A stretch of DNA of 64,000 nucleotides from an uncultured Alphaproteobacteria bacterium (GCA_944389535.1 CALXMS010000003.1:39419-103418), one strand, 5' to 3'; shown: positions 2,827-53,046, counted from the stretch's first letter. The notes: generated from the letters alone by a model not told the origin. A program made the numbers and translations.

Positions 2827-3732
2827 TTACCGACAAACTTCTTGAAGTATCTTACCGCGTTTTATTTCTAATCGCTTTTTATACGTTTCATAAACGGGGT
2901 TGTCTTCAAAAACTAAGCAATCACAATTTACAGGTAAATAAGCCAGTGTCTTAATATTATTCTTTGAACAATCAAGTATTTCTACTTTTTGGGGACAAAA
3001 CTTTAAATCTTTTAAAAGATTCCACCCGCAATCAAATTCCTCTAATTCCAGAGGCGCACCTTTTAAAGACCGTAATTTATTATTGCTACAATAATAATTG
3101 TTTACTTTTTGTGGTCCCCCGATCAAATTTGATAATCTATTATCTTCACAATAAAAAAAGTTTTTTACCTCTATTGGGGCGCCTTTTAAAGTACGCAATT
3201 TATTAAATGAACAATTATACACATTCACCTTTTCTGGTCCGCCTTCTAGAGTTATTAAATCATTAAAGGAACAATAAAAAATTTCCGTAAATTTTGGTGC
3301 CCCATTTAAAGTCTTCAAATGATTCCAGCAACAAACGTATTTTATTGTTTTAACGGGTCCACCAACCAAAGATTCTAATTGATTATGGTTACACAAAAAT
3401 TCTTCCACCTCTTTCGGCGCAAAGTTTAAAGACGACAAGGCATTATGGGAACAATCATATACTTCCGCTTTACTAGGTCCCCCTTCAAGACTAGTTAATA
3501 AATTTGAATCGCAATAGAAACGTTTTACCTCTTTTGGCGCACCTTTTAATGAAGTTAATTGATTATATGAACAATTAAAATAACTTAAACAAACACACGT
3601 CGAAAGATCTGGTAATTCAGTCAAACCCATTTTGGCAAGATTTATGCCTTCTTTTATAACAAAATTCTTTGGCAACTCAAATACATCATACTTTTTTCCG
3701 TCTTGATAAAAGTACCTGCTTGGTTCACCCAT
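2827..3732 (-). CDS. Leucine-rich-repeat protein with about 11 tandem 20-residue repeats. No signal peptide, so a possible eukaryote-like effector.
   Basis: The 301-aa ORF has a repeat unit xCsxNxLxSLxGaPxxVxxF, for example YCDSNLLTSLEGGPSKAEVY, DCSHNALSSLNFAPKEVEEF and YCSFNDLITLEGGPEKVNVY. The period is 20 aa (60 nt). The N-terminus is not hydrophobic. Confidence 0.7.
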   Translation of the reverse strand: MGEPSRYFYQDGKKYDVFELPKNFVIKEGINLAKMGLTELPDLSTCVCLSYFNCSYNQLTSLKGAPKEVKRFYCDSNLLTSLEGGPSKAEVYDCSHNALSSLNFAPKEVEEFLCNHNQLESLVGGPVKTIKYVCCWNHLKTLNGAPKFTEIFYCSFNDLITLEGGPEKVNVYNCSFNKLRTLKGAPIEVKNFFYCEDNRLSNLIGGPQKVNNYYCSNNKLRSLKGAPLELEEFDCGWNLLKDLKFCPQKVEILDCSKNNIKTLAYLPVNCDCLVFEDNPVYETYKKRLEIKRGKILQEVCR

Positions 3733-5190: not shown

Positions 5191-5356
5191 AAGCTTTCCT
5201 TTACAGTTAAATATACATAAATACGTTGTGAATAAGCATAAAACAAAAAGATAACCGCCGCAAGCGCGTTTTTATATAAATTTATTGAAAACGCCAAAAA
5301 ATATTGACAAATTTTATTTAAGGGCTATATTATATGATAAACACCAAGAGAAATAA

Positions 5357-6082
5357 ATGACCAAGACGCCGAAATTTTCAAAGCAAATTGAGGAAAATCG
5401 TGAAACGATATCTAAACTGTTATCTGGTGCTGATACAGTCAAACGTTTGAACAATTTTAATTGGTTACGGCACGAAATATCATATACAGAACCAAGAATT
5501 TTATTTTACGTCCCCAGCAAAGAACAACAACCATATTTGGACTATAATTCTATGAAAAATATTGGTGACGCATATGATTATATATTACAAAACCCGAAAA
5601 AAAACATAGATATATATGAAATTTGTAAAATACACAGCACAATATGTACGGGAACGCATATTCAGGGGGGATTATTTAGAACCAGCCCAAAAATAATAGA
5701 AATACAAGTTAATGGCCATCGATTACATGCACCAGACGAAACGCAAATTTTATCGAAGATGACCGAAATTATTTTCAAATTAAACGACCGTAATGTCTGC
5801 GTATTAAAACGCGCATTTCGTATTCATTACGATTTAATTATGTTGCAACCGTTTGATGACTTTAATAAGCGCACCGCACGACTTATTATGAATTGGGTAT
5901 TAATACAGAACGGATACAGACCTATAGTATTTAATCAACCAACGGATAAGCAAAAATATAAAGAAGCAATTACTGCTTGTGCAAATGGTCGACCTAAAGA
6001 ATATATATACTATATGTCATATTGTATGGCTAGAACGCAAAAACAAATCATATCTTTATTGAATAACTCTAAAATGTTATAG
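5357..6082 (+). CDS. Fic/Doc-fold protein with a non-canonical active-site motif, QPFDDFNKRTAR in place of HPFx(D/E)GNGRxxR
   Basis: The layout is Fic-like: HIQGGLFRTSP...VNGHRLHAPDETQILSKMTEII...AFRIHYDLIMLQPFDDFNKRTARLIMNWVLIQNGYRP. This aligns residue-for-residue with the canonical Fic core, which ends in ...IHPFxDGNGRxxRLLxNLxLxxxGYPP. The catalytic His is replaced by Gln, and GNG becomes FNK, which resembles the Doc NKR motif. Confidence 0.7.
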   Translation: MTKTPKFSKQIEENRETISKLLSGADTVKRLNNFNWLRHEISYTEPRILFYVPSKEQQPYLDYNSMKNIGDAYDYILQNPKKNIDIYEICKIHSTICTGTHIQGGLFRTSPKIIEIQVNGHRLHAPDETQILSKMTEIIFKLNDRNVCVLKRAFRIHYDLIMLQPFDDFNKRTARLIMNWVLIQNGYRPIVFNQPTDKQKYKEAITACANGRPKEYIYYMSYCMARTQKQIISLLNNSKML

Positions 6083-15026: not shown

Positions 15027-16508
15027 TTAAAATTGCGCGTTTACACCGACACGAATCCCCATAGACTTATAGAATGATTCTATTTCGCCACTCATTGAAC
15101 ATACCCAACCAGGACATTCTGTTTCAAGATTCTTAATATTGATTGCGATCGGATCTCCTGGCGTCCCTTCAACTAAGCCCAGCATTTTATCCTCATCGCC
15201 ACCCCACTTATTTGAATTAAGAATCGTGTTATATAAATCCGTATAATACGTACTATTCAAATATGTTTTTGCGTCGGCACCGCTAACCGAATAATAATCA
15301 TACGTTAAGCCAATTGACAAAGCAACAGAATTTGTTATCGCGGTCGTCCAATTCGCACCCATACCTATATGAAATGCTCCGAACATCCCTGTACTATCTT
15401 CAACGCTCTTCGGATGTGCCCAGTCAAAGCGATAGGGTTGGTCGCCAACAGATTCATAACCAGGCAACCCCAGCTCTACACGACCATTAACTGCATTGTT
15501 CTGATTTATGATATAATCCATATCCAACGCAATGTATGGTCCAGCCCACGTTGTTTCATACGAATGGCTGACACCAGGCTGTTGGTAATAATACGTACTG
15601 GCTGTATCTATGCTATCTATATTTGAACTTGTAATTGGTTGCATCTCATCTGTTATGTTATCACGCCAAATTATCTGTTGCGTACCATCAGAGTAATTTA
15701 TTATTATCGCAGGATCGCACTGTATCTCTCCGTTTACATCGAAACATGCGGCCGTATCAACAGATAAACCATAATTTTTTTCTGTTTCTAGTTTATATTT
15801 CAAGTACCGATAACCTATTGATGGCGTAATTTTGACGTTTCCCCATTTAAAGAAATCTGTTAAACCAAAACCTACGTTAAAGCCCATCATATTACCACCC
15901 TGACTGGTACCAATAGACATTGCGTGCCCAATTTGATCACCTATCTTGCTATTATTATCATCGGCATTTACCCACGTAGTTTGTAAAAAACCACCGTTCG
16001 TAATATCATCGTCATACATGGCAGATTCACCCCACTGCATACCGTACTTCAATCCTGCGTCAACCTGCATTGTTGTATTACCGACATTAAAATAATATCC
16101 CCCAGTAACGTCTAAAACGTTCCAGCCGATATTATCATAACTTAAAATACTACCAGATTGGTTCATTTCCATCTGCCATTGCGAAAATTCGTGGGTTATA
16201 CCTGCGTCTACCCAGAAACCCGATTTTTTTGAGTTCGATGTAGACGCCTGTGAAGACGTTGCAGCTGTGGTTCTTTGCGCCGTGGTCGTAGCTGCAGCGT
16301 TATTATATCTGGACGCATATGATGGCGTCGAATAGTAGTTGCTTGAATAATATGGACTGGTATAGCCTGTTTGACGCTGTGCATAAGTTTGTGACGAGTA
16401 AGACGTTTGCGGAGATTGATAAGAGCCACCAGTATAATATGTCCCTGCCGCATTCGCCATCACAGGTGTAATCGCAGTTAATAAAAACAGAGATATTTTT
16501 TTCATCAT
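15027..16508 (-). CDS. Outer-membrane beta-barrel protein with an N-terminal Tyr/Ser/Thr/Gln-rich low-complexity region
   Basis: The signal peptide is MMKKISLFLLTAITPVMANA. A ~90-aa stretch of Y/S/T/Q low complexity follows (GTYYTGGSYQSPQTSYSSQTY...). The rest is aromatic-rich with alternating strands and ends ...RVGVNAQF, an OMP C-terminal Phe. Confidence 0.55.
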   Translation of the reverse strand: MMKKISLFLLTAITPVMANAAGTYYTGGSYQSPQTSYSSQTYAQRQTGYTSPYYSSNYYSTPSYASRYNNAAATTTAQRTTAATSSQASTSNSKKSGFWVDAGITHEFSQWQMEMNQSGSILSYDNIGWNVLDVTGGYYFNVGNTTMQVDAGLKYGMQWGESAMYDDDITNGGFLQTTWVNADDNNSKIGDQIGHAMSIGTSQGGNMMGFNVGFGLTDFFKWGNVKITPSIGYRYLKYKLETEKNYGLSVDTAACFDVNGEIQCDPAIIINYSDGTQQIIWRDNITDEMQPITSSNIDSIDTASTYYYQQPGVSHSYETTWAGPYIALDMDYIINQNNAVNGRVELGLPGYESVGDQPYRFDWAHPKSVEDSTGMFGAFHIGMGANWTTAITNSVALSIGLTYDYYSVSGADAKTYLNSTYYTDLYNTILNSNKWGGDEDKMLGLVEGTPGDPIAINIKNLETECPGWVCSMSGEIESFYKSMGIRVGVNAQF

Positions 16509-16726: not shown

Positions 16727-16803
16727 AAAAGCAAGAAACTTTTATTTATAAAGTACTTGCTCGACTTTTCTAAAATTTGCTAACATTATTATACATAATA
16801 AGG

Positions 16804-19800
16804 ATGAAAGGATTTAAACTGCTTTTTGCCGGTTGCCTGACATTGTTAGCATTTGCCTTTTATAACTATGCAAATGCCGACGATTCGGTTGATGCTGCGC
16901 GCGCGGCAACGCGCCGTAATACCTCAACGACAGTCGTAAGGCAACAAACAGATATATCTAACGAACAACAGCAACAAAGTCTATCTGGAACTTCGCGTTC
17001 TACCAACCTATCGTCTGTTGGAACGCGCGATCGTAATACCACAACGGCAACAAGGAATAATGCTATTTCACGCGAAATAGGAACGCGTACCTCATCTAAC
17101 GAAACCAATCAATCAGTTTCTGCTCGTACAACTTCAAACGTAACGTCACGTTCTGTAACAGATACGACGAATGTTATATCTTCCCCTTCACGATCCACCA
17201 CACCAAGAAGCACAACAACTATATCCAGGACTGGTACTACCCCTACGCGCAATGCTATAACTTCATCGACAACTGCACGTACAGCTGCGCCAACTGTTTC
17301 ACGCAATGCATCTGTTAATCGTTCAGGCAGCGCAACAAATACAACTGCCATTATTTCTCGTGCCGCAAATACAACGTCTTCTACAACCACATCTCGTGCA
17401 GGAACTTTGACGGCAGAAGAAATAATAAATAGAGACTATACGACGTGTCGCGAAGTCTATTATAGCTGTATGGACGAATTCTGTGCGAATAAAGACAGCC
17501 AATTAAAACGCTGTGCTTGTTCTTCGCGGGTAAACGAATTTGACTCAATTAAAGAGCAGCTTGCACAAGTTGAAGATAAAATGTTAGATTTTAATCAACG
17601 CTTATTAACTGTCAACATGGATAAAGAAGATGCAGAGGCAATATTTCAGGCCACAGAAGGTGAACTGGCTTTCCAGCAAGAAGATAAATCCGAATCAAAA
17701 AAATTATTAGACGAAATTGCGAACAAACTAAATACAACTTTTGACACCAGTACTTTTGATTCTAATCTATCACCCATATCTCTTTCATTAAACGTGGACG
17801 CCGCATTTGATAGCGTTGATTCTTTAGCCGGCGCATCTACAACAACAAAATCTGGTACGGCACTATACAGCGCAGCATTACCAATATGCAGGGAAATGGC
17901 ACTAGAAGTATGTACTCAAGACGAACTAGACATCATTGAAAGTGGTTATCAAATGGCCATAGAACAGGATTGCAATACGGTTGCCAAAGCATATGAAACA
18001 CAACAAGATTTGGCGCGGGAACAAATTCGCGAAGGAAGTGCTCTTTTAGATATGTCCCGTTTAGATATATATCAGAAACGTAACTCTGATGACATACTTA
18101 CATGTAAAAAGAAAATGTTAGATATGCTTACGAACACGGCAGTATGCGGAACAGATTTACAGAAATGCTTGGACATCAGTGGACAGTATATCGATCCATC
18201 TACGGGTGAGGCAATCCTTACGGTTAATTTAGTTAATTTGGGTAACCTGATAACACGTCCCAGCGCAGATCAAACATGGACGAACACACCTGGGAATGAA
18301 AAGTTCGTATCATATTTAAATTCAAAAAAGCTATTTTTAGAATCCGCAACGGAAAACTGTCAAGATATCGCAGATTATGTATGGGACGAATTTATAGAAG
18401 ATGCATTAGCCCAAATAAAATTAGCTCAAGAAAGCAAATTGGAAGAAGTTAGACAAAGTTGTACAACATTGACAACACAATGTTTAACAGAATCGGCGGA
18501 ATCATTAGAAGATTTTGATGCTCGTGCACTATCTATTTTCGGCGTAGAAGCCGATAAGACAGTAAAACAAATGTGTTCAGAGGTTCAAACCGCTTGTACT
18601 GCATTGCTTGATACCGTTGATGGAGGATATGACTGGAGTACCGGTATAACAGAAATTGCCACAGATAAAACCTATGAAACTATATTACAAACATGCCGAG
18701 AAGTTGGACGAGCATGCATAATACAATCTTGTAAATCTATATCTGGTAATTTTGGTTTATGCGAAAACATTCAAACTTCTGTTAACAGAAAATCTATAAT
18801 TAACCGTACAGCATGTTGGGAAGAGGTACTTGAATGTGTTGAAAGTGCTGGTATAGATTCAATAAACAAAATAACAGAACTGCAGCTAAATCATTTGGAT
18901 GAATTTAATAGGTCCTTTTACACAGAGTTATATGGTGTCTATACCGCACAAGATATAACTAATGACGAATTAAATGCTGGGTTTGATATCTCTCAATCAT
19001 GTATTATCGGCGATAACGGTAATTGCATATATGATATATGCGCAAATGAATGCGGTTTTAACGCAGAAACTTCAACATACAGCAAAATTACATCTAACGA
19101 CTGTCAGGTATGTCGTTTAGCCGAAAAAGTTTGGGGTAATTGTGAGGCTCATCCGACGGCCAACTTACAGGCAAGCGAATCGCATAACAAAATTAAAATA
19201 CCAATTGATAGCACACAAGATACTTTATTATCTTGGTTTGCAAAAAATACAAATACAGAAAATGCAGACGATAGCTGTCGTGATACTTCTTGTGGCCCGG
19301 GATACATATCTTCTTGGGATTCAGAAAAACAAACTTCTGTATGTGTACCGCGCTCTCAGTTATCAGATGACGGTCTAATCTGTTCTTCAGATACCTATTG
19401 GCGCTTAAATATAAACGGATATAACAATTGTTGTCGTACGTCCAGTGGGTCAACTGGTGGCGCACGCGATGGTTTTGGAAATTGCTGTTTAGGTTCAACC
19501 ATCGGTGCAGAAACGAATACCATAGCAGGTGTTAATTGGGAAACAACAACAGGATATTGGAACCGTAACGCTGTTTCAACTGAACTGCCAAGAAAGACAG
19601 ATGAAGTACAGGGAACTTTGGCGCCGAATAAAAACGGAGGGCTCTGTTTACCGTCTACCTCAAAATTTGTTATGGCATTTCCATTAACGGACTCATATTA
19701 TGGTGACTCTGGTATCGGGTTCTTGTTCTGTACTGGAACAATACGTGATATAACCAATCAAACATCTACTTTCCCAAGCGGACAAACGGTACAATGTAAT

Positions 19801-20013
19801 GGTGATTATATAATAGTTACTCAAGACGGCAGATATTTGTCACCACAATACAAAGATTCTGATGCAACATCAATAACGACTTTCTATAGAGAACAAGAAG
19901 ATGTCGGTGGTGTTTGCATAAATACATATTCAGACTCGTCATGGTCTTGGATAAAAGATTCTGATCAACAATGTGATTTGCAGACCCCGACTAACTGGTT
20001 AATACAAAATTAA
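16804..20013 (+). CDS. Large secreted cysteine-rich protein, member 1 of a paralogous family. It has an N-terminal Thr/Arg/Ser/Asn-rich low-complexity region.
   Basis: The signal peptide is MKGFKLLFAGCLTLLAFAFYNYANA. An alternative upstream ATG lies at 16777. A ~200-aa T/R/S/N-rich region follows. The family signature is YYSCMDEFCANKDSQLKRCACSS. Further shared blocks are VCGTDLQKCLD and ENCQDIADYVWDEF. There are more than 60 Cys in total. Confidence 0.8.
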   Translation: MKGFKLLFAGCLTLLAFAFYNYANADDSVDAARAATRRNTSTTVVRQQTDISNEQQQQSLSGTSRSTNLSSVGTRDRNTTTATRNNAISREIGTRTSSNETNQSVSARTTSNVTSRSVTDTTNVISSPSRSTTPRSTTTISRTGTTPTRNAITSSTTARTAAPTVSRNASVNRSGSATNTTAIISRAANTTSSTTTSRAGTLTAEEIINRDYTTCREVYYSCMDEFCANKDSQLKRCACSSRVNEFDSIKEQLAQVEDKMLDFNQRLLTVNMDKEDAEAIFQATEGELAFQQEDKSESKKLLDEIANKLNTTFDTSTFDSNLSPISLSLNVDAAFDSVDSLAGASTTTKSGTALYSAALPICREMALEVCTQDELDIIESGYQMAIEQDCNTVAKAYETQQDLAREQIREGSALLDMSRLDIYQKRNSDDILTCKKKMLDMLTNTAVCGTDLQKCLDISGQYIDPSTGEAILTVNLVNLGNLITRPSADQTWTNTPGNEKFVSYLNSKKLFLESATENCQDIADYVWDEFIEDALAQIKLAQESKLEEVRQSCTTLTTQCLTESAESLEDFDARALSIFGVEADKTVKQMCSEVQTACTALLDTVDGGYDWSTGITEIATDKTYETILQTCREVGRACIIQSCKSISGNFGLCENIQTSVNRKSIINRTACWEEVLECVESAGIDSINKITELQLNHLDEFNRSFYTELYGVYTAQDITNDELNAGFDISQSCIIGDNGNCIYDICANECGFNAETSTYSKITSNDCQVCRLAEKVWGNCEAHPTANLQASESHNKIKIPIDSTQDTLLSWFAKNTNTENADDSCRDTSCGPGYISSWDSEKQTSVCVPRSQLSDDGLICSSDTYWRLNINGYNNCCRTSSGSTGGARDGFGNCCLGSTIGAETNTIAGVNWETTTGYWNRNAVSTELPRKTDEVQGTLAPNKNGGLCLPSTSKFVMAFPLTDSYYGDSGIGFLFCTGTIRDITNQTSTFPSGQTVQCNGDYIIVTQDGRYLSPQYKDSDATSITTFYREQEDVGGVCINTYSDSSWSWIKDSDQQCDLQTPTNWLIQN
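16890..17420 (+). repeat. Low-complexity, degenerate short-period coding repeats (T/R/S/N-rich) at the N-terminus of family member 1
   Basis: The protein sequence shows recurring TxR/SRxxT units (TRRNTSTT, TRDRNTTTATRNN, TRTSSNET, SRSTTPRSTTT...). The compositional bias also creates long spurious antisense ORFs at 16866-17390. Confidence 0.6.
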
Positions 20014-20016
20014 ACT

Positions 20017-20043
20017 AGCCTTCGTTTAAAAGAAGGCTTTTTA
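20017..20043 (+). terminator. Rho-independent terminator after family member 1. Flanking A and T tracts suggest it is bidirectional and also serves pth.
   Basis: The stem agccttc/gaaggct has a gtttaaaa loop. It is followed by TTTTTAT. Confidence 0.6.
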
Positions 20044-20046
20044 TAT

Positions 20047-20565
20047 TTACAAATTTATTTTTGAAATTACGTCGTTTATTACTTTAAATTCTGCATCTGA
20101 AAGTTTACCCAAAACCCAATCTGCTGGGTCAATGGCTAAACCGACGTCACGTGGGTGACCGATTCCGATTCTTATACGTCTATATTCTGGTCCGACAGCC
20201 GCATCAATAGATTTTATGCCGTTATGCCCTGCACTGCCGCCACCGATTTTTTCACGCAAGCTGCCTATTTTTAGGTCCATATCATCATGAATAACAATTA
20301 AATTTTCAAGCGGTATTTTATAAAAAGTCATCAATGCCCTAACGGCATCTCCGCTGTTATTCATGAACGTTTGCGGTAAAGCGAATATAAATTTTTTACC
20401 GTTTATTTTTTCTGTATAAGTTAATGCCTCATGCTCTTTACGCCATACAGAATCTTCCGGAACGAAATGCCGCACTGCCACGAAACCAACGTTATGACGA
20501 GTACGCTCATATTTAGTCCCCGGGTTACCAAGTCCAACAATCAAAATCGGTTTATTTTCTTGCAT
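20047..20565 (-). CDS. pth: Peptidyl-tRNA hydrolase
   Basis: It carries LIVGLGNPGTKYERTRHNVGF and the internal HNGIKS motif. Confidence 0.93.
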   Translation of the reverse strand: MQENKPILIVGLGNPGTKYERTRHNVGFVAVRHFVPEDSVWRKEHEALTYTEKINGKKFIFALPQTFMNNSGDAVRALMTFYKIPLENLIVIHDDMDLKIGSLREKIGGGSAGHNGIKSIDAAVGPEYRRIRIGIGHPRDVGLAIDPADWVLGKLSDAEFKVINDVISKINL

Positions 20566-28222: not shown

Positions 28223-30199
28223 TTATTTTACTTTTTCTAACACGAATTTCTTACCTTCTGCTATTTTCTTCATTAGGTCATTTCTAAAATATATTTGTGT
28301 TTTATTATCAATATCTAATCGCATCATATCTAATAACTGATGAACACTTTTTGCATACACATAGTAACCAGAAAAAATATTTCTACTTTTAGGTAATCTT
28401 AAGCGCAGATTTGTATCGTACACTAACCACATAGGTGTTGAAGGGTAGTCACTATTATTTTCTAATATTCCATGTATCGCCAAAACCGTATCATCACAAA
28501 ATAATTTAATCTCTGTATTTATATGTCGTGGTAATAATTTATTCCCATTCACCCACACTTCGTTATACACACCATTTAATGTTGTTTTTATATGCTTTAT
28601 TTTTATTCTTAGTAAACCATCTTCACTATAATCTATAATATTTTCTGGCGTAACATTAGGCTTCGAAAGCTTTTCATCTGCCAGCTGTGGTATAGATTCT
28701 TTTTTATTATTTGTAGCAAATTCTTCAATTGTTCCTTTGCCTAAATTTTCTATTTTATACCTTTGATTTGCTTCTTTTAAAAGACTGTTAATTAACTTAT
28801 TGTTAGATTCTATGCTACTTAATTCACCTATTTCAATCAACGGGCATATAAGGTATCCACAATTCTTAGATATAATTACTGTGTTTGTGTTTACGCCTTT
28901 TGCATTGATAACACCAGCTTCTGCTGGTACATTTTTTACCCTGCGATTAGTATCATAAGGAGAAATCACAATATAAGAACACGCACTGGGTGATTCCAAA
29001 AAAAGCTCATGACTTTTATCCATATATTTAATTATTTTAACGCCTGATTTAGATTCCTGTAAAACATTTCCAGTTTTTAAATTTATAACATATAACACAA
29101 AATTATTTACCGACCTTTTCTTTCTTACAATGGCAAAGTTTGATACCTCATCAAAAAAGACTAAATGATAAGGAACATTAGAACCGCTTAATAATCTAGC
29201 CGTTGTATATTCTTTTCCGAAACATAAATTATATTTGCCTTTACCAGTTAACACAGAGAATAATGGTACTTTTAAACCAACATCTAAATATTGTTGTTGG
29301 ACCATTTTTGGTTGTTTTTTTAAACTTTTTTTGGGTTTACGTATAAAAATTTGATTAGCTGCATCATAAGATGGAAATCTTTTAATCAATTCGTTTTGTA
29401 AAGATACATCTATTGGCATTCCATACTTCTTACAACGATAAAGTGCTACTTTTATATAAGCATCATTCGCTGTCGACCAATCCTTTTTCTTTTTGTGTCT
29501 TATCCGTATAAATCTTTGATTTATCGGATCATATGAAGAAAATCTTTTAGATAGTTCCGTATTTAAACTTTCATCTATAACTTTTTTATTACTTTTAAGA
29601 TTATAAAATAACTTTTTTAAACGATCGTCATCAATTATGCTTAAGTCTTTTTTTTGGAAAATTCTGTTAAACTTTTTGTTTTCTTTGTCATAACTTGGAA
29701 ACCTTTTTATAAGCTCTGTTTGTAGCGCATCTTCTATAGGTTTCCCAAATCTTTTCCTAGTATATAAAATACATTTTAAATTATCGTCACTTAACTTTGT
29801 CCAATCTTTTACCCTTGGTGCACGACGAAGCGTACGCGTTTTTTTATCATACTCAGGAAAACGTTTATGTAACTCTTGGCTTAATTCATCTTCGATTTTT
29901 AAACCGCGCTTATACCGATAATGATATGACGCACGTAAGCTTACATCAGACATTAATGACCACTCATATTGAGTTTTTCTACGGCTGACATATTTTCCTT
30001 CATTTTGTACGTTGAGTACGCTATTTTTTAAGGAAGGTTTAACAATACTTTTAACATATGCAGAAATCAAACTTATTGATAACAAAGGGGCAGACATTAT
30101 TATAGCTTTTTCTAATTCTGACACCGCCTTTACAACAGCTTGATCTTTTAATAAACTTTCAACAATATAAGTTGCTATAGATTCTTCTGTATTTTTCAT
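28223..30199 (-). CDS. Hypothetical protein with four tandem ~54-aa repeats built around an ELxKRFPSYD motif
   Basis: The repeats are SQELHKRFPEYDKKTRTLRRAPRVKDW..., QTELIKRFPSYDKENKKFNRIFQKKDL..., NTELSKRFSSYDPINQRFIRIRHKKKKDW... and QNELIKRFPSYDAANQIFIRKPKK.... There is no signal peptide. One possible N-terminal TM helix is IIMSAPLLSISLISAYVKSIV. Confidence 0.55.
   Translation of the reverse strand: MKNTEESIATYIVESLLKDQAVVKAVSELEKAIIMSAPLLSISLISAYVKSIVKPSLKNSVLNVQNEGKYVSRRKTQYEWSLMSDVSLRASYHYRYKRGLKIEDELSQELHKRFPEYDKKTRTLRRAPRVKDWTKLSDDNLKCILYTRKRFGKPIEDALQTELIKRFPSYDKENKKFNRIFQKKDLSIIDDDRLKKLFYNLKSNKKVIDESLNTELSKRFSSYDPINQRFIRIRHKKKKDWSTANDAYIKVALYRCKKYGMPIDVSLQNELIKRFPSYDAANQIFIRKPKKSLKKQPKMVQQQYLDVGLKVPLFSVLTGKGKYNLCFGKEYTTARLLSGSNVPYHLVFFDEVSNFAIVRKKRSVNNFVLYVINLKTGNVLQESKSGVKIIKYMDKSHELFLESPSACSYIVISPYDTNRRVKNVPAEAGVINAKGVNTNTVIISKNCGYLICPLIEIGELSSIESNNKLINSLLKEANQRYKIENLGKGTIEEFATNNKKESIPQLADEKLSKPNVTPENIIDYSEDGLLRIKIKHIKTTLNGVYNEVWVNGNKLLPRHINTEIKLFCDDTVLAIHGILENNSDYPSTPMWLVYDTNLRLRLPKSRNIFSGYYVYAKSVHQLLDMMRLDIDNKTQIYFRNDLMKKIAEGKKFVLEKVK
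29330..29900 (-). repeat. About four tandem repeats of ~162 nt (54 aa) within the coding sequence of the hypothetical protein
   Basis: They were derived from the protein-level repeats. Coordinates are approximate. Confidence 0.45.
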
Positions 30200-39927: not shown

Positions 39928-40755
39928 TTATTCATCCAAAGCAGCTTCAATTTGTTCTGCAGGAATTGCACCAGGGAACGCTTGTTCACCGATGATCAAG
40001 AATGGCGTACCGCTTATTTCAAAACGCTGTGCCAAATCACGAACGTTTCTCATTTCACGTGCAACAACTTCACCATTCATGTCTTCTTTCAATTTTGCTG
40101 TATCTAATCCAGCTTCTGCAGCCATTTTCATTACATTTGCTTCAATCTTTTCAGCTATTGTAGACTGATCTTCTAAGTCTTCTTGACTATAGAAATCACG
40201 AGTCATTAACATGTTGGTCAATTGAGCAGCTTTTTCTGGATCCTGTAACTTTGCAGCAATAACTGCTTTCGCAGGACCATCAGACAATGGACCATGTATA
40301 GAGAAGTTCTTAATTACTACACGGGTATCATCACGATCTGCTAATACACGTTCAATTTCACCGTGTACACGACGACAATATGGGCAAGAGAAATCAGTCC
40401 ACACATAAATTGTCTTTTTACCTTCACGATTACCCAAAACTGGAGCATCACGCATCATCTGTTCGCCTTCAGAACGAACGAACTTACGAATTTGTTTATT
40501 TTTTTCTGCCTGCTGCTGTTCTTGCATGCGGTTAACCATTTCCTGTATAATTGCTGGATTTACAGCCGTCAGATAAAACGGTGTATACAAACGACACATA
40601 CTGCCAGAAATCAAAATGATAGATATTAATGTTATGCATTTTTTAGCAATGATTTTACTAGCAGATGGTTTTTTCTCATCCCCTTTCGGCAGCAACATAC
40701 CACCAAACAAGAATAAAAGAATACCGACTACTAGAACTAATATTGTCCAAGTCAT
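39928..40755 (-). CDS. Membrane-anchored DsbA-like thiol:disulfide oxidoreductase (thioredoxin fold)
   Basis: There are N-terminal TM segments. The thioredoxin-fold CPYC active site sits in WTDFSCPYCRRVHGE. The C-terminus reads SGTPFLIIGEQAFPGAIPAEQI, like DsbA. Confidence 0.75.
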   Translation of the reverse strand: MTWTILVLVVGILLFLFGGMLLPKGDEKKPSASKIIAKKCITLISIILISGSMCRLYTPFYLTAVNPAIIQEMVNRMQEQQQAEKNKQIRKFVRSEGEQMMRDAPVLGNREGKKTIYVWTDFSCPYCRRVHGEIERVLADRDDTRVVIKNFSIHGPLSDGPAKAVIAAKLQDPEKAAQLTNMLMTRDFYSQEDLEDQSTIAEKIEANVMKMAAEAGLDTAKLKEDMNGEVVAREMRNVRDLAQRFEISGTPFLIIGEQAFPGAIPAEQIEAALDE

Positions 40756-45367: not shown

Positions 45368-47881
45368 TTACATAACTATATCTTCACAGACCTCTTCTGA
45401 CACGTTAGTCGTACAACTAGTATTGCGATTATTATGAAACCAGCTACTGCTGCCTGTTGTTTTGCAATCTTGAGATGTGGTTTGTGTACAAATATGACAA
45501 GTTCTTGTATCACGACTAAATATTGCTCTAACGGTTTTCGTCATACCGGCATTATCCATACTAGAACCGCCAAGGTAACCACTGTTTGTAAATGTAACAC
45601 CATCTGTTTGCAATACACCTGCCCCACCCTTAGCCAAGTCTTCCGTTGTCAAACCAGAACCAACGTCATAACTAATTGCGTATGGTGGTGTTAACGGCGT
45701 AGACGCAGTAATAGCCCCACCACCAGCGCCACCGTTTTCGGCAATTTTCTGACACATATATTGCGCCAAATCTGTAGAAGCATTCTTTGTTGCTTCAGCA
45801 ATTTCATAATTAAGCTTCGTATTATAGTTATCCTGAGCTTTACGCAACGCAGCCACTGCTATTTGCATTTTTACCTGATTTAATAAATTCGGGAAGCGAC
45901 CAACAGTCGATGCATTTGCCTCACCTGTAATTTGCTCCAAACTGCGCCCACTTACACAATATTGAATTTCAGGGTCGCTTTCTATCATTTCTATTGTGCG
46001 ATTTATTGTACCAGCAATATTATTCAGCTCTTCTTCTATAGAAGAAATTATACCGTCATAATTAGCAACACCTACGTTATTTTCTTTTACTTTCGCAAGG
46101 TATTCTTCAATGCCTATTTCACCCGGTTCCAAAGTAACCGTGTTACCGCTGCCGTCTTCCATTTTAGTCTGACCGCTGGCATCTCCCATCTTGATACTAC
46201 CGAAAGATATCATACCCGTAACGCGATATGTTGTACCATCTTTCTGAGAACGTAAAGACCCCGTACCGATCGTATCATCAGCTGCGAATCTATTACAATC
46301 TGTGGTACTGCCGCAAACCTCTGCCATCTTTTTATCAACGATATTCTGGCACTGTTCCATCATTGCATTATCAATATTCAGATATAATCCCATCAACATA
46401 CTATCTAAATCGTCCATGGAAAAATTAGGGTTATTTGCTTTACATACAACCAAACTATCAATCGGACATATGTCATGAATATAGTTATAATCCATCCCTA
46501 TACAATTTTCAAAGTTAGGACCACAACGAGTATCTGCAGTAAAGCAATCTTTTACTTCTTGGGTACACGCATCAACGCGCATTGCCGCAAGCTTATCTTC
46601 AACGTACCCCCAAATTAAAGGTTCCATTCTTTCACAAGGGTCTATTTCTACCTTACAAAAACTACGCGCCATTTCAGGTCTAGATAAGCAAGCATCCATC
46701 GTTGCAACGCCTTTACCCGCAATATCGTCACGACACGCAGTCTGAATACAGTCAGAAATCGTCGTTAAACAAGATTGACGGAACTTAGATTCTGCCTGTA
46801 TTTCTGCAACCTTTATTGTTGGTGCCGCCTCACGCAGAAAGTTCGGCCAGACCAAATCACGTACAGCAACACACTGATCTAAAACATTTTCACATATTGG
46901 ACGCTTTGTATTTAATATGTTCATCGTAGACGTAGTAATGTCATAAGTATCAACAGTTTCAACTGTCGTCCCGGCAGTACTTGTTGCGGTGTTATTCTGC
47001 ATATTTTCCATCGCAATTGTCGCAACGCAATTTTCCCAATCCTCGCCACAGGCATCATCGGTCTGCATACACTTCTTAAATTCTACCATGCACTGTCCAA
47101 GGTCATACTTATTTGCACTTTCAAAACTTTCTTGTAACGCTGCACGTACTTCAGATTCTGCTGCGGCAAGTTCGTTTTCAGCATTATCACGCTGTTGAGA
47201 TAAAGAATTTTTATACCCCAAACAATCTGATGTTATCTGACGAGAATAAAGCTGCTGTAAAAATACAATATCTCCAGAACAAGATTCTGGAACCTGATTC
47301 AAACATAAATTATTAGCCGCGTTATACAATTCGCTGCCGATCATATCTGCCATATCCGCCACAGTACTTTGTAACTCTGCTGAATCATCTTCATAAATAC
47401 TGTTATTATTAAATATTGCCAATAAGTCTGCACGCTTTTGAGCTTTCTGCTTTTCTTCTGTTAACTGCCCCGATGCCAAAATATTACCATCAGCGTCATA
47501 TTGACGAGTACCAGTAAAAACTATATCTGCATTAGCGCCAGCTTTAACACGCTCAACCTCTTCTGTACGAAGACGATTCGCTTCGTCCAGTATAGACTGA
47601 ATAGACGCCATTTCTTGATTATATTCTATTATATTATCACTGCATGTGCATGCACCACCGCTGGCATTATCAGTAATACAAAACTGATCCATGCAACCAA
47701 AATACGCATCGTAACACGCCTGATCATATAAACCAGTTGCTTCAATTTTTGTTCTTACTGTCGTTCCCTGTTGAATCGCGGATTGACGAGAATTCTTACT
47801 GGTAGTAAGAGCATAAGAGTTTGTAACAACCCCAACCACCAAATAAGTAAATAACGAAACAAACATAATTTTATTTCTCAT
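45368..47881 (-). CDS. Large secreted cysteine-rich protein, member 2 of the paralogous family
   Basis: The signal peptide is MRNKIMFVSLFTYLVVGVVTNSYA. The SD GGGGGA lies 8 nt upstream, and the ORF is open to 47899. The family signature reads CYDAYFGCMDQFCITDNASGGACTCSDN. It shares CENVLDQCVAVRD and CGxxFENC blocks with member 3. The C-terminus reads ...VCEDIVM. Confidence 0.8.
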   Translation of the reverse strand: MRNKIMFVSLFTYLVVGVVTNSYALTTSKNSRQSAIQQGTTVRTKIEATGLYDQACYDAYFGCMDQFCITDNASGGACTCSDNIIEYNQEMASIQSILDEANRLRTEEVERVKAGANADIVFTGTRQYDADGNILASGQLTEEKQKAQKRADLLAIFNNNSIYEDDSAELQSTVADMADMIGSELYNAANNLCLNQVPESCSGDIVFLQQLYSRQITSDCLGYKNSLSQQRDNAENELAAAESEVRAALQESFESANKYDLGQCMVEFKKCMQTDDACGEDWENCVATIAMENMQNNTATSTAGTTVETVDTYDITTSTMNILNTKRPICENVLDQCVAVRDLVWPNFLREAAPTIKVAEIQAESKFRQSCLTTISDCIQTACRDDIAGKGVATMDACLSRPEMARSFCKVEIDPCERMEPLIWGYVEDKLAAMRVDACTQEVKDCFTADTRCGPNFENCIGMDYNYIHDICPIDSLVVCKANNPNFSMDDLDSMLMGLYLNIDNAMMEQCQNIVDKKMAEVCGSTTDCNRFAADDTIGTGSLRSQKDGTTYRVTGMISFGSIKMGDASGQTKMEDGSGNTVTLEPGEIGIEEYLAKVKENNVGVANYDGIISSIEEELNNIAGTINRTIEMIESDPEIQYCVSGRSLEQITGEANASTVGRFPNLLNQVKMQIAVAALRKAQDNYNTKLNYEIAEATKNASTDLAQYMCQKIAENGGAGGGAITASTPLTPPYAISYDVGSGLTTEDLAKGGAGVLQTDGVTFTNSGYLGGSSMDNAGMTKTVRAIFSRDTRTCHICTQTTSQDCKTTGSSSWFHNNRNTSCTTNVSEEVCEDIVM

Positions 47882-47923
47882 CACTTTATCCCCCGCCATG
47901 CCATAAAAGACGGCATATAAACC

Positions 47924-50050
47924 TTACATATTTATATCTTCACAACTTTCGATTTCTTGACAGAACTCTTGTTCTCCTCCGGCACTACGCCCAGCAAAGA
48001 AACCACCGACACCACCGACGATTGCACCAATTGCAGTCCCCCAACCCGGAGATACCATCGTACCAGCAGACGCACCCGCAGCAAGCCCCCCCGCAGCCCC
48101 CTGTAATCCAGCGGTACCCTTTGATTGCCCCCCGGTTTCACATACTTGTTGCATACGACAAACGTGACAATTACGCAACGCCGGTTCAAAAGCAACACTG
48201 CGAATATAACTATAGTTTTTACTTGATTTATCAGGTGTTTCAACTTGATAAGTATTATAACAGTTCTGCTCTGCCGCTTCTAAATCCTGCTGACGCGATA
48301 ATTCTGCAATTTTAGATTCCAACTCACGCATAGCACGATTTTCTGCGCTTATCTGCGCAATCATTTTTGCGCTATTAAACACACTATCACCTAAACTTTC
48401 ACGATCTGACGGTTTCTGACTATCTTGACATGCTGCAACAGTCTTGTCTTGTTCAAACTGTACGAAAAATTCATTTACAGCGCTTTCTGTATTGGCACGA
48501 ACACTTTCTCGCAAAGCCGCTAATTCTTCTTGCGTTTCAGGTACAGCAACAAGAGAAGTAATTTGTGTATCCGTTGTCAAACATGACATATCAGTTCCAC
48601 AAACGTTACCAAGTTGTTCACTGAAGTAATTTAAACACCCCTGTAACATTTGATAATCCATTTGTAACATTGCCGCCTGAACTATAATATCAAACTGACT
48701 TTCATTCTTACAAGACGGGAACATACTTTGTGGACACATAGCAGAAATCTCTATTGCACTTTTACCGACGCATTCCGGTGCAGTAAAGTTTTCGCCGCAT
48801 CTATCACGCAAACACTGGTCGACGTCATTCTGACAAAATTGCGTACGTAGATACCCCAATTTATCATTAACAACAGTCTTAATTCCCGGTATCATTTCTT
48901 CACATTCGTCAATTACAGGGCAAATTCCAGCCGCAACGTTTACATCTGTTAAACATGCAGAATTAGTTTCTGTTGAACAACCGTCTTCCAGACACAACTG
49001 AATTCTTGCCAAACATGTTGCTCTAGCGTTTTTATCGGCATATTTTGCGGCATCAGCTAAAATGCTTACCGCTTCGTCTTCCCAGTCTGCTAACACATAT
49101 TCACGAACCGCCATACACTGATCCAAAACGTTTTCACACGCATTTGCACGACGCGCCAACAAATCGGCATCCAAGCAATTTTCAAAATTTACACCACAAC
49201 CACCTTTATCAGCAATACAAGAACGATACGCCAACAAACATTCACCGCGGTTGTATTTATTCGTCGTATCCAACATTTCTAAACGCGCCTGACGAACCGC
49301 GGCCTCCGCAGTACGTTTATTAGATTCTGCAATTGCTTTCTGATCGTTCAAATAAGATTCAAAATTTTTACAATCTTGAACTATTTGACGCGCATACAAA
49401 ACCTCTTCCATTTCTGCGCTACTGCCACATGCCGCCAACCTATCAGCACAATATTCTGACGCCATTGCATATAACGGATCACCTATATCATTATCAGTAC
49501 CTAAACTTGCCTCTTCTTCGGTACCAGAATTTATCCAATCCGCAAAACTTATACCAGATATACTAGAACTTTTCTTTGCCTCTTCGCTTTCACCGAACAC
49601 CAGTCGAGCCTGTGCCCCCAACTGTTCACGTTCAACGCCTTCTGTATAAAGCAAATCAGCCTCTTCCTGAATTTTCTGAATCTCTTGTATCAAAGATTTT
49701 GACTGATTAATGTTTGAAGAACATGCACACCTACTACCTTCTGACTCATCCAAAAGACAAAATTCGTCCATGCAAGCACGATAAGCATCACGACACGTCT
49801 GTGAAGATCCGCTTTCATCGCTACCAGAAGAATCCCCAGTATCTGTTGAAGACGAACCACCATTACCAGGTTTTATATTTAATGTAGGCATTGACGTTCC
49901 AGAATCAAGATTTGGGGACATGTTTACAGAATGCACAGCAGCCTGAGACATCCTGCTGACGCCGACGCGCACAGTAGAATCATCTCTTGTTGCGGCACCA
50001 GCAAAACTTGGTAAAAGAAATATTAAACCTAAAAAAATTCCTAGTTTCAT
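47924..50050 (-). CDS. Large secreted cysteine-rich protein, member 3 of the paralogous family, in tandem with member 2
   Basis: The signal peptide is MKLGIFLGLIFLLPSFAGA, with the SD GGAAGGGA upstream. The family signature reads CRDAYRACMDEFCLLDESEGSRCACSSN. Shared blocks are CENVLDQCMAVRE and CGVNFENCLD. A Gly/Ala-rich hydrophobic stretch sits near the C-terminus. It ends ...SCEDINM. It lies 24 nt upstream of member 2 on the same strand. Confidence 0.8.
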   Translation of the reverse strand: MKLGIFLGLIFLLPSFAGAATRDDSTVRVGVSRMSQAAVHSVNMSPNLDSGTSMPTLNIKPGNGGSSSTDTGDSSGSDESGSSQTCRDAYRACMDEFCLLDESEGSRCACSSNINQSKSLIQEIQKIQEEADLLYTEGVEREQLGAQARLVFGESEEAKKSSSISGISFADWINSGTEEEASLGTDNDIGDPLYAMASEYCADRLAACGSSAEMEEVLYARQIVQDCKNFESYLNDQKAIAESNKRTAEAAVRQARLEMLDTTNKYNRGECLLAYRSCIADKGGCGVNFENCLDADLLARRANACENVLDQCMAVREYVLADWEDEAVSILADAAKYADKNARATCLARIQLCLEDGCSTETNSACLTDVNVAAGICPVIDECEEMIPGIKTVVNDKLGYLRTQFCQNDVDQCLRDRCGENFTAPECVGKSAIEISAMCPQSMFPSCKNESQFDIIVQAAMLQMDYQMLQGCLNYFSEQLGNVCGTDMSCLTTDTQITSLVAVPETQEELAALRESVRANTESAVNEFFVQFEQDKTVAACQDSQKPSDRESLGDSVFNSAKMIAQISAENRAMRELESKIAELSRQQDLEAAEQNCYNTYQVETPDKSSKNYSYIRSVAFEPALRNCHVCRMQQVCETGGQSKGTAGLQGAAGGLAAGASAGTMVSPGWGTAIGAIVGGVGGFFAGRSAGGEQEFCQEIESCEDINM

Positions 50051-50559: not shown

Positions 50560-53046
50560 ATGAGGAATGTTTTATTCTTTATTATTGCGTGTTTAATCGG
50601 CATCGCAGATGTCGATGCTGCAGTTCGTGGAACAGAATCCGTAAATCGCCAATCAGCAGACAATGCTGCTACGAATACCCTTGTTGCCAGAACGACACGT
50701 ACCCCGACAACTAATTCTGTAAGGACCTCGTCTGAAACCGCTATAACAAGAAATAATACGAATACAGTTACAAGATCATCAAATGGTACGGTAACCGCAC
50801 GCAGTGCAAACGATCAGGTCGCAACTGCGCGCAACGGTACGACGACGGCACGCACTGCTAAGACAACGGTAACTTCAAGTTCTCCGCGAAATGCAACGAA
50901 TAATAATACAATCGTACGAAGCGCTACAAATACTGAAAGAACGGCTACGTCGGCAAACGCTCGTACAGCAAGGGCAACAACCGTCGCTTCATCAACGGTA
51001 ACGAATACTTTTGGTACAGGGTATAACACATGCAGGAATGCTTACTTCACATGTATGGACCAGTTCTGTGCAACGGCTAATGACACTTATAGACGTTGCG
51101 TATGTTCTTCCAGACTTACTGACGTGCAAGAAAGAGAAAGAGCTCTTTCTCAAACGTCGGGGCAATTACAGGATTTTAAAAATTTGAACATAGAGGTAAT
51201 CCCTAAAACTGCAGAAGAAGTCAATGCTATGCTTACCGCCAGCGAAGGAGAACTGGCAATAATGGAAGATACATCATCTTCTTCTCAAGAATTGGCCGGC
51301 ATAAGAGAAGTTCTATCATCATCTAAGAACCAAGCATTGTCAACCTTAGGAACCCTAGATATAGCCGGTGACATAAATCAAATATGGGCAACAACAGATT
51401 TAGCCTCGGGGCAAAACATAGCAAATCTTACAGGTGAGGCATTATATAACGCTGTACACTCGCAATGTGTTAATCTGATATCAGATCAATGTCCATCAAC
51501 ATCGACACTAAATATGGTTGTATCAGCGTATGGCATGTATATTGAAAACGATTGTTCTACACTATTAAACGCTTTGGATAGTAAACTAGTTCAAGCAAAT
51601 AGCAGCATTCGCGAAACAGAAAGAGAGATGAATTTGGCGCGACTAGAAAACTATAATGCTCATAATTCTACATCAATCAATGATTGCATTGCACAAGTAC
51701 GAAAAGACATTACAGCAGATACTGCATGCGGAACAGATTATGTACATTGCTTAGATATAACAGGTCTTTATTTAAATAGAGACACCGGGGAACCGATTTA
51801 TTCACAGAACTTTTACCAACTTGGTAATCAAATATCTTTGGACGGAGACGTGTTAACTAACTCAACCAACCGTCTTATTGTCGCCGAACTAAATAATAAG
51901 CGTATATATGCTGAAAGAGGGTTGGAAACGTGTCAGGATATCGCAGACGAAGTCTGGGATGAATTTGTTCGTCAAGCAATAGTAGAAATTTATCAGGGAC
52001 AGCAGTCAAAAATCCGCGACGTAAAGAACGAGTGTCTTGACGTTGTAAATGCATGTTACGACGAGCAAAGCGAATCGTTAAAAGATTTTAGTAATGTTAA
52101 AGAAGAATTATTATTAGGTTCACGTCTTGAATTATCAGAAGAATTATGTGAAGAAAAACTATACGCCTGCAGTAATTTATATGGCGACCCTAATGGGGAT
52201 GGTTTGGAATTATTATTAACGGCAATGCATGACATCACAGATCAAAAAATTGCTGCAGAATGCAAATCTCTTCTTGAAGCATACGCTTTAGATATGTGTA
52301 CAGTTCCTAGCAATGATAGTTTACATGCTTATCCATATGGATGTCGCGTTTATGCACCTGGTGACGCAATATATGCATCCAAAGCTTACTGTAATCAATT
52401 ACAATGGACTAACCCTACTACTTCCAATCCGTCAACCCCAGGAGGAGGAGGAGAAGAAGAACCAACAACAGGTTATGTATGTCCATCTTATATAAAATAC
52501 ACTTCCTGCGCACCTGGTTATTACATGGCGACCCTAAATATAATGCAAGAATGGGAATACAACGGAACACCTGTGGCAGGTAATAAATGTAAACCATGTC
52601 CTTCTAATGCAATCTGCGAAGGTGGCACTTCGGAACCATTAATAATCGCCGCACCAGAAGTTGATGAAGATAAAGATTGTGGCACAGATTATGCGGGCAG
52701 TTTATATCAAAAGATGGTAAAATATTCTACTCAGGTATGCGTTCGCCCATCTGACTACGATCAAATAACTGCTGGTAATAAAGAAATACCGTCAAACGTA
52801 TTACAAGATGTAAATATAGTAATGGATACAATAAGAGTAGAAATGGCAACAGTATTATCACAAGAGTGTGATAGATTAGGTGGCACATGGGTTGACACCC
52901 AATGGGTTGACCAAGATTATAATGACAAACACGATAAAACTGGGCACATACTATTTAAATATTTTTATGATGAAACCGGTTCTAACACCAAATGGGGATA
53001 TTGTGCAGATCCAGAAAGTGTATCAACGGCAACGTTGGGTGTATAA
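50560..53046 (+). CDS. Large secreted cysteine-rich protein, member 4 of the paralogous family, with an N-terminal T/R/S/N-rich low-complexity region
   Basis: The signal-peptide-like N-terminus is MRNVLFFIIACLIGIADVDAA. A ~150-aa T/R/N/A-rich region follows (TARSANDQVATARNGTTTARTAK...). The signature reads YFTCMDQFCATANDTYRRCVCSS. It shares ACGTDYVHCLD and ETCQDIADEVWDEF with member 1. Confidence 0.8.
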   Translation: MRNVLFFIIACLIGIADVDAAVRGTESVNRQSADNAATNTLVARTTRTPTTNSVRTSSETAITRNNTNTVTRSSNGTVTARSANDQVATARNGTTTARTAKTTVTSSSPRNATNNNTIVRSATNTERTATSANARTARATTVASSTVTNTFGTGYNTCRNAYFTCMDQFCATANDTYRRCVCSSRLTDVQERERALSQTSGQLQDFKNLNIEVIPKTAEEVNAMLTASEGELAIMEDTSSSSQELAGIREVLSSSKNQALSTLGTLDIAGDINQIWATTDLASGQNIANLTGEALYNAVHSQCVNLISDQCPSTSTLNMVVSAYGMYIENDCSTLLNALDSKLVQANSSIRETEREMNLARLENYNAHNSTSINDCIAQVRKDITADTACGTDYVHCLDITGLYLNRDTGEPIYSQNFYQLGNQISLDGDVLTNSTNRLIVAELNNKRIYAERGLETCQDIADEVWDEFVRQAIVEIYQGQQSKIRDVKNECLDVVNACYDEQSESLKDFSNVKEELLLGSRLELSEELCEEKLYACSNLYGDPNGDGLELLLTAMHDITDQKIAAECKSLLEAYALDMCTVPSNDSLHAYPYGCRVYAPGDAIYASKAYCNQLQWTNPTTSNPSTPGGGGEEEPTTGYVCPSYIKYTSCAPGYYMATLNIMQEWEYNGTPVAGNKCKPCPSNAICEGGTSEPLIIAAPEVDEDKDCGTDYAGSLYQKMVKYSTQVCVRPSDYDQITAGNKEIPSNVLQDVNIVMDTIRVEMATVLSQECDRLGGTWVDTQWVDQDYNDKHDKTGHILFKYFYDETGSNTKWGYCADPESVSTATLGV

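Follow-up and report, generated by a model that had tools for sequence, protein, structure and literature searches.

A conserved Cys-rich core and a fast-diverging tail in an exported protein family of Candidatus Enterousia

The M1 gene and protein

We analysed a stretch of 64,000 nucleotides (hereafter the window) from an uncultured Alphaproteobacteria bacterium (GCA_944389535.1, CALXMS010000003.1:39419-103418) that encodes four paralogous Cys-rich proteins, here called M1, Mb, Mc, and Md, with M1 as the main subject. An open reading frame (ORF) at 16777..20013 on the plus strand was confirmed, its 1078 aa being counted from the TTG at 16777 in the ORF listing. Judged from the sequence, the true start is almost certainly the ATG at 16804, because a database protein (P0001) of 1069 aa is 100% identical to M1 from this codon onwards and because a canonical Sec signal peptide results. 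The gene then spans 16804..20013 (+), i.e. 1069 aa plus stop, with orthologues in 80 species-level genomes; all residue numbers refer to the 1069-aa form. M1 is a genuine gene with an intact reading frame and encodes an exported disulfide-rich protein. It is preceded by tRNA-Leu and faces the convergent pth, and a bidirectional terminator-like hairpin (20017..20038, a pattern match from a consensus scan) lies between the M1 stop and pth. The initial annotation had placed M1 among housekeeping genes between tRNA-Leu and pth; the position is right, but the flanks also hold envelope genes, namely those for a DUF3078 protein, orf204, and a divergent Pom-type porin just upstream of the tRNA, as well as a small outer-membrane protein (OMP) gene between pth and polA.

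M1 begins with a Sec-type signal peptide (residues 1-25, 16804..16878, +), MKGFKLLFAGCLTLLAFAFYNYANA followed by DD, which forms a helix in the AlphaFold2 (AF2) model and is predicted from the sequence to be cleaved at ANA/DD. The following tract (residues 26-205, 16879..17418, +) is polycationic, rich in Thr, Ser, Ala, and Arg, and disordered, with a predicted local distance difference test (pLDDT) of 24-33 in the AF2 model. Across 79 orthologues the tract varies in length from 137 to 222 aa with only about 30% identity, consists of 22% T, 17% A, 14% S, 12% R, and 1.4% K with almost no K, D, or E, and carries a net charge of +10 to +23. No DNA tandem repeats were found in the N-terminal tract of M1.

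Next comes an α-helical core of about 440-470 aa with predicted Cys staples (residues 206-680, 17419..18843, +), which the AF2 model shows as long helices, one of them of ~74 residues (pLDDT 45-80). The core is marked by the CMDEFC...CACS signature at its start and by CX6C pairs that recur throughout it. Identity among M1 orthologues amounts to 72-90% here, and the signature C-x6-C-M-D-x-F-C ... C-x-C-S is invariant in 79 of them.

The remainder (residues 681-1069, 18844..20010, +) is a Cys-rich, β-rich C-terminal tail specific to M1, most variable in its distal ~230 aa. When modelled on residues 600-1069, it was predicted with good confidence (pLDDT 87, predicted template modelling score 0.69) as short helices followed by a structure rich in β-hairpins. 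Tail identity among M1 orthologues is 20-60%, with invariant cysteines. The tail (residues 681-1069) had no Pfam match at E<=1, a sequence-profile search of the PDB that included it gave 0 hits, and its model had no significant structural match among solved or predicted viral folds. With respect to the libraries searched, the M1 tail and the ~440-aa CX6C core may each define a new domain family and perhaps a new fold. Single motifs of the 'C-x-PG-Y' type are present in the tails of both M1 and Md.

Many Enterousia species possess an extra secreted Cys-rich ORF (5.5-7% Cys, 340-450 aa) between M1 and pth on the same strand (L004:10151-11380, L009:10071-11333, L017:11360-12589, L045:10209-11546, L076:9678-10700), which is absent from the window (20013-20047). 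'C..C.aG.Y' motifs occur in it, its end is conserved as 'GTKFCD..GCFHLP', and the copy at L045 matches Pfam Ephrin_rec_like (PF07699) at 3e-07. The ORF is a divergence hotspot of its own, with 38-56% identity between L045 and L051 in flanks of ~90%. A detached copy of the M1 tail was considered and rejected, as the two have no similarity.

Four paralogs in two subfamilies

A six-frame scan of the window for C-x-D-x-[FYW]-C ... C-x-C-S returned exactly four sites, at 17467 (+), 51052 (+), 49774 (-), and 47695 (-), which map to the ORFs 16777-20013, 50560-53046, 47924-50050, and 45368-47899, respectively. Besides M1, these are Md (member 4 of the initial annotation; 50560..53046, +; 828 aa), which is the closest paralog of M1 and has the same layout of tract plus core followed by its own unrelated 230-aa tail; Mc (47924..50050, -; 708 aa), with a C-terminal glycine-zipper segment and the ending CEDINM; and Mb (45368..47899, -; 843 aa as listed, or 837 aa from the likely start M7 as in its orthologues), which ends in CEDIVM. 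Signal peptides can be read from the sequences of all four.

M1 had been proposed as a fourth, distant paralog closest to member 4, and this is borne out: M1 and Md share 32% identity over 496 aa in BLASTP (E=1.3e-66), shuffle-controlled local alignment of the cores gives z=72 for M1-Md and z=31 for M1-Mb, and hhalign on the cores gives a probability of 100% (E=1.5e-90) against the Md type and 99.7% (E=6e-26) against the Mb type. The similarity extends well beyond the shared motif, since the cores minus their motif-bearing first 40 residues still reach z=54 (M1-Md) and z=19 (M1-Mb). Over its whole length, the segment of residues ~215-655 of M1 is shared by homology with the other three paralogs, and ~17 Cys are invariant across the four. 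The CMDxFC...CxCSS signature common to M1 and member 4 was recovered in the six-frame scan, and both proposed pairs of collinear blocks, ENCQDIADYVWDEF in M1 with ETCQDIADEVWDEF in member 4 and VCGTDLQKCLDISGQYIDPSTGE in M1 with ACGTDYVHCLDITGLYLNRDTGEP in member 4, are present. The suggested split into 1+4 and 2+3 also holds, given that Mb and Mc share 30% identity over 478 aa (E=3e-56) and that comparisons across the subfamilies reach only E=1e-12 to 3e-22. The distribution of the tract agrees with it family-wide: the long S/T/A/R tract has a mean length of 149 aa in M1-type and 120 aa in Md-type proteins vs 43 aa in the Mb type.

Two other claims about M1 needed adjustment. The low-complexity N-terminal domain is indeed shared with member 4 in composition (180 aa in M1 and 135 aa in Md, with a net charge of +11 each), but it is not alignable; the likeness is one of composition only, because the alignment score (z=1.0) was reached by 47/300 shuffles. 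The extra Cys-rich C-terminal region is specific to M1 by phmmer, hhalign, and shuffles, but it measures about 390-415 aa rather than ~450 aa. It has no counterpart in the other members, as had been stated, but all four paralogs carry tails of their own after the core, and these tails are mutually unrelated (phmmer; hhalign probability <1%; shuffle z=0.5 for the M1 tail). With cores homologous end to end and unrelated tails, the idea of a modular C-terminal diversification of the family is well founded.

Subfamily-specific features were also seen in Mb and Mc. The two proteins share a conserved C-terminus, Cys-x-(x)-C-E-D-I-(V/N)-M (window 45368-45390 and 47924-47950), retained as CEDI(V/K)M in Mb-type orthologues, and residues ~640-692 of Mc form a membrane-like glycine-zipper segment just before it (Gly-zipper_Omp, E=0.005). 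The CEDI-type terminus and the zipper segment of Mc may serve the 2+3 subfamily as a signal of its own for anchoring or sorting.

A family restricted to one lineage

The window belongs to Candidatus Enterousia, a group of uncultured Alphaproteobacteria of the order Rs-D84 that live in the gut and have genomes below 1 Mb. Members of Enterousia/Rs-D84 have been described as strictly fermentative, with genomes of this size and retained peptidoglycan genes, and MreB, RodA, and MrdA are reported for Rs-D84 (PMC12306168). They lack standard nutrient transporters and are predicted to rely on partner cells, to the point of obligate partner dependence, and membrane proteins of unknown function are suspected to act in cell-cell contact (PMC12306168).

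A large protein database contained 962 homologues of M1, none named beyond “hypothetical protein” of Alphaproteobacteria metagenome-assembled genomes (MAGs), and a scan of species-representative genomes yielded 80 loci with full-length orthologues at 46-72% identity. Their titles read Candidatus Enterousia, uncultured Alphaproteobacteria, or Rickettsiales, and the guts from which they were obtained include those of humans, chickens, ruminants, and rodents; two of the records, at 0.72 and 0.96 Mb, are circular chromosomes. The gene order DUF3078-orf204-Pom porin (divergent), tRNA-Leu and M1, then pth (convergent)-small OMP-polA is kept in ~68/80 loci. Rather than a copy dispersed in recent times, M1 is therefore an ancient orthologue that is single-copy and fixed in its position. 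The cluster Mb-Mc-IF1-Md-235aa-autotransporter is likewise conserved in Ca. E. intestinigallinarum.

Used by itself in an exhaustive profile search, the core recovered 857 clusters at 50% identity with E<=1e-3 (550 of them at E<=1e-30), all of which have a core of ~440 aa after an N-terminal region of ~100-240 aa and total lengths of 640-1186 aa. The best 150 clusters comprise 65 of M1 type, 78 of Md type, and 7 of Mb type. Among these 150, the M1-type tail is found only with M1-type cores, being detectable by BLAST in 53/65 M1-type representatives, and tails are therefore specific to their orthogroup and not shuffled. More distant members stem from MAGs labelled Rickettsiales, Alphaproteobacteria, or Proteobacteria and have “hypothetical protein” as their sole name. 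One of them contains a Listeria-Bacteroides surface repeat (Flg_new) in its tail; across 42 divergent members, domain association gave this single match and an artefactual fusion to DnaA, and was essentially uninformative.

Scans of the four paralogs and of the isolated tails against Pfam, NCBIfam, and PHROGs gave nothing above threshold, the sole matches being glycine-zipper or low-complexity ones in Mc and, as noise below the threshold, entries like DUF730 and SpoIIIAH. No relative of the family was found by tblastn in phages or plasmids, and a literature search on Enterousia and Rs-D84 found no description of it. The Cys-rich core family is thus restricted to the Candidatus Enterousia/Rs-D84 lineage and was previously undescribed. 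Automated annotation probably truncates some of its members: the ENA call for an Md orthologue (L081:4717-6720) begins only at the Met within the CMDQFC motif, gives 667 aa, and so omits the signal peptide and the low-complexity tract.

Cysteines occur in even numbers

The core of M1 contains exactly 22 Cys in 79/79 orthologues. In the tail the count is 18, 20, 22, 24, or 26 in 70 orthologues and odd in 9. Even counts also prevail family-wide in the mature proteins, in 68/86 representatives below 50% identity (p=5e-8), and were found in 119/119 Mb orthologues. Cysteines are thus gained and lost in pairs, the pattern that marks proteins whose disulfides are fully formed within the molecule in an oxidising compartment. 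The window also encodes a DsbA-family thiol-disulfide oxidoreductase (39928..40755, -; Pfam DSBA 3.8e-19), whose gene is kept near the cluster in Ca. E. intestinigallinarum and whose product probably catalyses disulfide formation in the family. On the strength of even counts, paired change, and the presence of this gene, the cysteines of the family are probably all disulfide-bonded.

The M1 tail is the fastest-diverging segment of the locus

Compared with Ca. E. intestinigallinarum, the core of M1 is 88% identical, the N-terminal tract 48%, and the tail 55% (45% in its distal part), and the other proteins of the family reach 85% (Mb), 88% (Mc), and 82% (Md); across species, Mb is strongly kept at 81-89%. 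The autotransporter with PMP repeats is at 57%, and the divergence of the tail, at 55%, is therefore like that of a genuine surface passenger domain. By pairwise Nei-Gojobori estimates on close species-representative pairs, dN/dS (ω) was 0.02-0.07 (about 0.03) for the core, 0.14-0.48 for the N-terminal tract, 0.08-0.38 (mostly about 0.3) for the tail, and 0.01-0.27 for neighbouring genes. Purifying selection on the core is very strong, its constraint matching that on DNA polymerase I. The tail was the fastest-diverging segment of the locus.

Synonymous sites are affected as well. Tail dS was 2-4 times the core dS in most pairs and also stood out from neighbouring genes (0.69 vs 0.00-0.43 in L008-L013; 0.45 vs 0.04-0.15 in L033-L055). 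The switch in divergence starts at residues ~661-680, i.e. at the boundary of core and tail. L033 and L055 are 96-99% identical across 15 kb with a sharp trough of 82-89% at the M1 tail only, and similar troughs lie over the M1 tail in L008-L013 and L045-L051. Synonymous divergence raised in the tail alone suggests the import of divergent alleles by recombination. At present, the M1 tail diversifies by rapid divergence and, probably, allelic recombination within one homologous tail and not by swaps of unrelated modules.

A block of full identity was noticed at the same locus. The species-level representatives L008 and L013 are 100% identical in nucleotides over ~1.8 kb (locus ~3900-5700, the Pom porin gene), with flanks at 93-98% and the M1 tail at 81-93%, and M1 residues 241-420 are without substitutions (dN=dS=0). 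This suggests recent recombination between lineages at an envelope locus.

Other genes in the window

Immediately downstream of Md, a small secreted Cys-rich ORF (53108-53815, +; 235 aa, 11 Cys, 4.7%) without a Pfam match is kept in Ca. E. intestinigallinarum in the same position (L081:3935-4642) with 74% identity. Membership in the family was rejected, given no similarity to the four paralogs; it may be a partner of Md. Two envelope proteins of Chlamydia type are present in this alphaproteobacterium: a porin of the Pom (Protochlamydia outer membrane protein) family (15027-16508, -; Pfam 2e-10) and an autotransporter with a Chlam_PMP repeat (53856-56135, -; Autotransporter 5e-31, Chlam_PMP 2e-06), the latter being the fastest-diverging whole protein in the comparison with Ca. 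E. intestinigallinarum. A protein of the choloylglycine hydrolase family (60174-61268, +; CBAH 8e-65) with an N-terminal signal-like segment is, by sequence, a possible bile-salt hydrolase, which would fit the gut habitat. Another ORF with many cysteines (2827-3732, -; 301 aa, 18 Cys or 6.0%) lacks a signal peptide, matches LRR_4 only weakly (1.5e-05, under the cut-off), and appears cytoplasmic or effector-like.

The genome, at less than 1 Mb, also holds defence or toxin-like genes: an EcoRI-like adenine methyltransferase (56538-57446, +) adjoining an ORF of the PLD-like nuclease family (57443-58021, -), a second methylase, for N6/N4 of DNA, with a RAMA domain (34545-35645, -), and a Fic/DOC family protein (5357-6082, +). 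An ORF of 658 aa (28223-30199, -) had no Pfam match at E<=1e-4, and G+C at 28-30 kb is 0.31 vs ~0.38 elsewhere.

Discussion

We infer, with about an even chance of being right on function and localisation, that M1 is an envelope or surface protein for cell contact, built as a “conserved stalk, variable head” and standing outside the known adhesin families. After Sec export, DsbA would staple the helices into a rigid stalk via CX6C pairs on neighbouring helices, and the conserved core would serve as a scaffold for assembly or anchoring, possibly jointly with the paralogs. The Arg-rich tract would act as a spacer or tether M1 electrostatically to anionic polymers of the envelope or the target (lipopolysaccharide, glycans, mucin), and the variable tail would form an exposed head for binding to a partner cell or a host ligand, under pressure to change.

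Several points weigh against this. M1 shows no sign of being moved across the outer membrane, with no β-barrel, lipobox, sortase-like signal, or conserved C-terminal sorting signal, and no secretion system was found in the 64-kb window; with a Sec signal only, the default destination is therefore the periplasm. In reduced genomes, a gene order that is kept does not imply a functional link to the neighbouring OMPs. The dN/dS values are pairwise estimates and not a codon-model test, no sub-window of the tail had pN/pS>1 (0.16-0.42), and positive selection on the tail is not demonstrated, so that relaxed constraint could be an alternative. The core model is of moderate AF2 confidence (pLDDT 45-80), and the arrangement of CX6C pairs on antiparallel helices, by which they would staple hairpins, is a topology that we infer from spacing and parity only.

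Known systems offer likenesses to single parts of M1. Helicobacter Hcp/SEL1-like proteins are secreted helical proteins in which Cys pairs ~7 residues apart staple helix pairs by disulfides, and they resemble the M1 core in their predicted disulfide-stapled helices. By comparison, the helices of the family are far longer (up to ~74 residues), the proteins are far larger, and their tails are lineage-specific; the family proteins had no Pfam match to Sel1 or TPR at E<=1, and no 36-aa repeat periodicity was visible. Stalk/head adhesins (trimeric or classical autotransporters, Pmp) share with M1 a conserved anchor or stalk and a fast-diverging distal part. However, M1 has no autotransporter β-domain and no Autotransporter Pfam match, unlike the neighbouring ORF at 53856-56135 (5e-31), and neither passenger β-helix repeats, a conserved C-terminal aromatic signature, nor a known signal for secretion by such a route or for anchoring was found in it. 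The tail (residues 681-1069) did not match Ephrin_rec_like (PF07699) or TNFR-like families at E<=1.

The nearest parallel in overall setting is chlamydial. OmcB and OmcA are, like this family, Sec-exported proteins with about 4-5% Cys from a diderm with a reduced genome that depends on a host or partner, and a role in binding glycosaminoglycans is ascribed to a basic N-terminal segment of OmcB, a parallel to the Arg-rich tract of M1. The Pom porin and the PMP-repeat autotransporter encoded in the same window add to the likeness. Nevertheless, OmcB is β-rich and the core of the family α-helical with CX6C pairs, and no homology to OmcB or OmcA was found in Pfam or NCBIfam at E<=1 or in the PDB profile search. 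The likenesses to OmcB/OmcA, Hcp/SEL1, and autotransporter/Pmp proteins are functional analogies only, as every test for membership in these families was negative.

The chlamydial parallel leads to the strongest competing explanation, in which the family is a disulfide-rich structural scaffold of the periplasm or envelope that stiffens or spaces the envelope in the manner of OmcA/OmcB, and the M1 tail is simply a domain in the periplasm under weaker constraint. We regard this as a serious possibility, though an unlikely one. It would accommodate an M1 with a Sec signal and no outer-membrane targeting feature, the extreme conservation of the core and the high overall identity of Mb, Mc, and Md (82-89%), the ~10 kb that the family fills in a genome of under 1 Mb, the absence of any tail window at ω>1, and the chlamydia-like flavour of an envelope with a Protochlamydia-type porin and a PMP-repeat autotransporter nearby. 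On the other hand, the chlamydial complex has Cys-rich OMP partners, and the β-barrel OMPs and the autotransporter of the window contain 0-1% Cys. The even number of cysteines and their gain and loss in pairs speak for intramolecular and against intermolecular disulfides, and we accordingly downgraded a chlamydia-like disulfide-crosslinked outer-membrane complex. Moreover, peptidoglycan machinery is retained here (SLT, M23, and OmpA-family proteins in the window), so that no substitute for the wall is needed. The divergence trough, limited to the M1 tail in loci that are otherwise 96-99% identical, would be unusual for a periplasmic domain.

A conserved N-terminal part, a variable C-terminal part, and an apparent recombination boundary at their junction could also be expected of a secreted effector or a polymorphic toxin in which the region for delivery and stalk is conserved and a C-terminal effector domain is exchanged by recombination; the additional hypervariable small ORFs downstream of M1 in many species would fit as well. 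We find this very improbable. Polymorphic toxin systems swap unrelated C-terminal toxins and have a downstream immunity gene, and M1 shows neither: its tail is homologous within the orthogroup, similar in length, and invariant in its cysteines, without replacement by unrelated toxin domains, and in the window the terminator and the convergent pth come directly after M1, leaving no candidate for an immunity gene. Library scans revealed no toxin, immunity, or secretion-system domain, M1 is single-copy at a fixed position, and the family has no phage or plasmid relatives, which also led us to reject a mobile-element origin. That the similarity is an artefact of low complexity and Cys composition, or M1 a decaying non-functional duplicate, is refuted: the likeness of the N-terminal tracts is only compositional, but motif-less cores at z=54 and z=19, the hhalign E-value of 1.5e-90, the intact frame, a core ω of 0.02-0.07, orthologues in 80 species, and the confident AF2 model of the tail leave it practically no room.

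The conserved stalk and variable head proposed for M1 might extend to the whole family. In this more speculative extension, which we hold to be rather doubtful, the four paralogs would join via their homologous disulfide-stapled cores into a heteromeric stalk that spans the envelope or stands on the surface, with M1 contributing a recombining head of a new fold that sets specificity for partner or host and the Arg-rich tracts as tethers to anionic surface polymers. Such a stalk, if real, would give the partner-dependent Rs-D84 a hitherto unknown apparatus for cell contact and would represent a new class of attachment structure in bacteria, with a role like that of the contact machinery of epibiontic Patescibacteria.

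Candidatus Enterousia/Rs-D84 are widespread in the guts of humans, livestock, rodents, and birds, and the Cys-rich family fills >1% of such a genome. M1 is a concrete, testable candidate for a specificity determinant of their partner-dependent lifestyle, because the constraint on its core equals that on DNA polymerase I and its tail is the sharpest divergence hotspot in otherwise near-identical loci.

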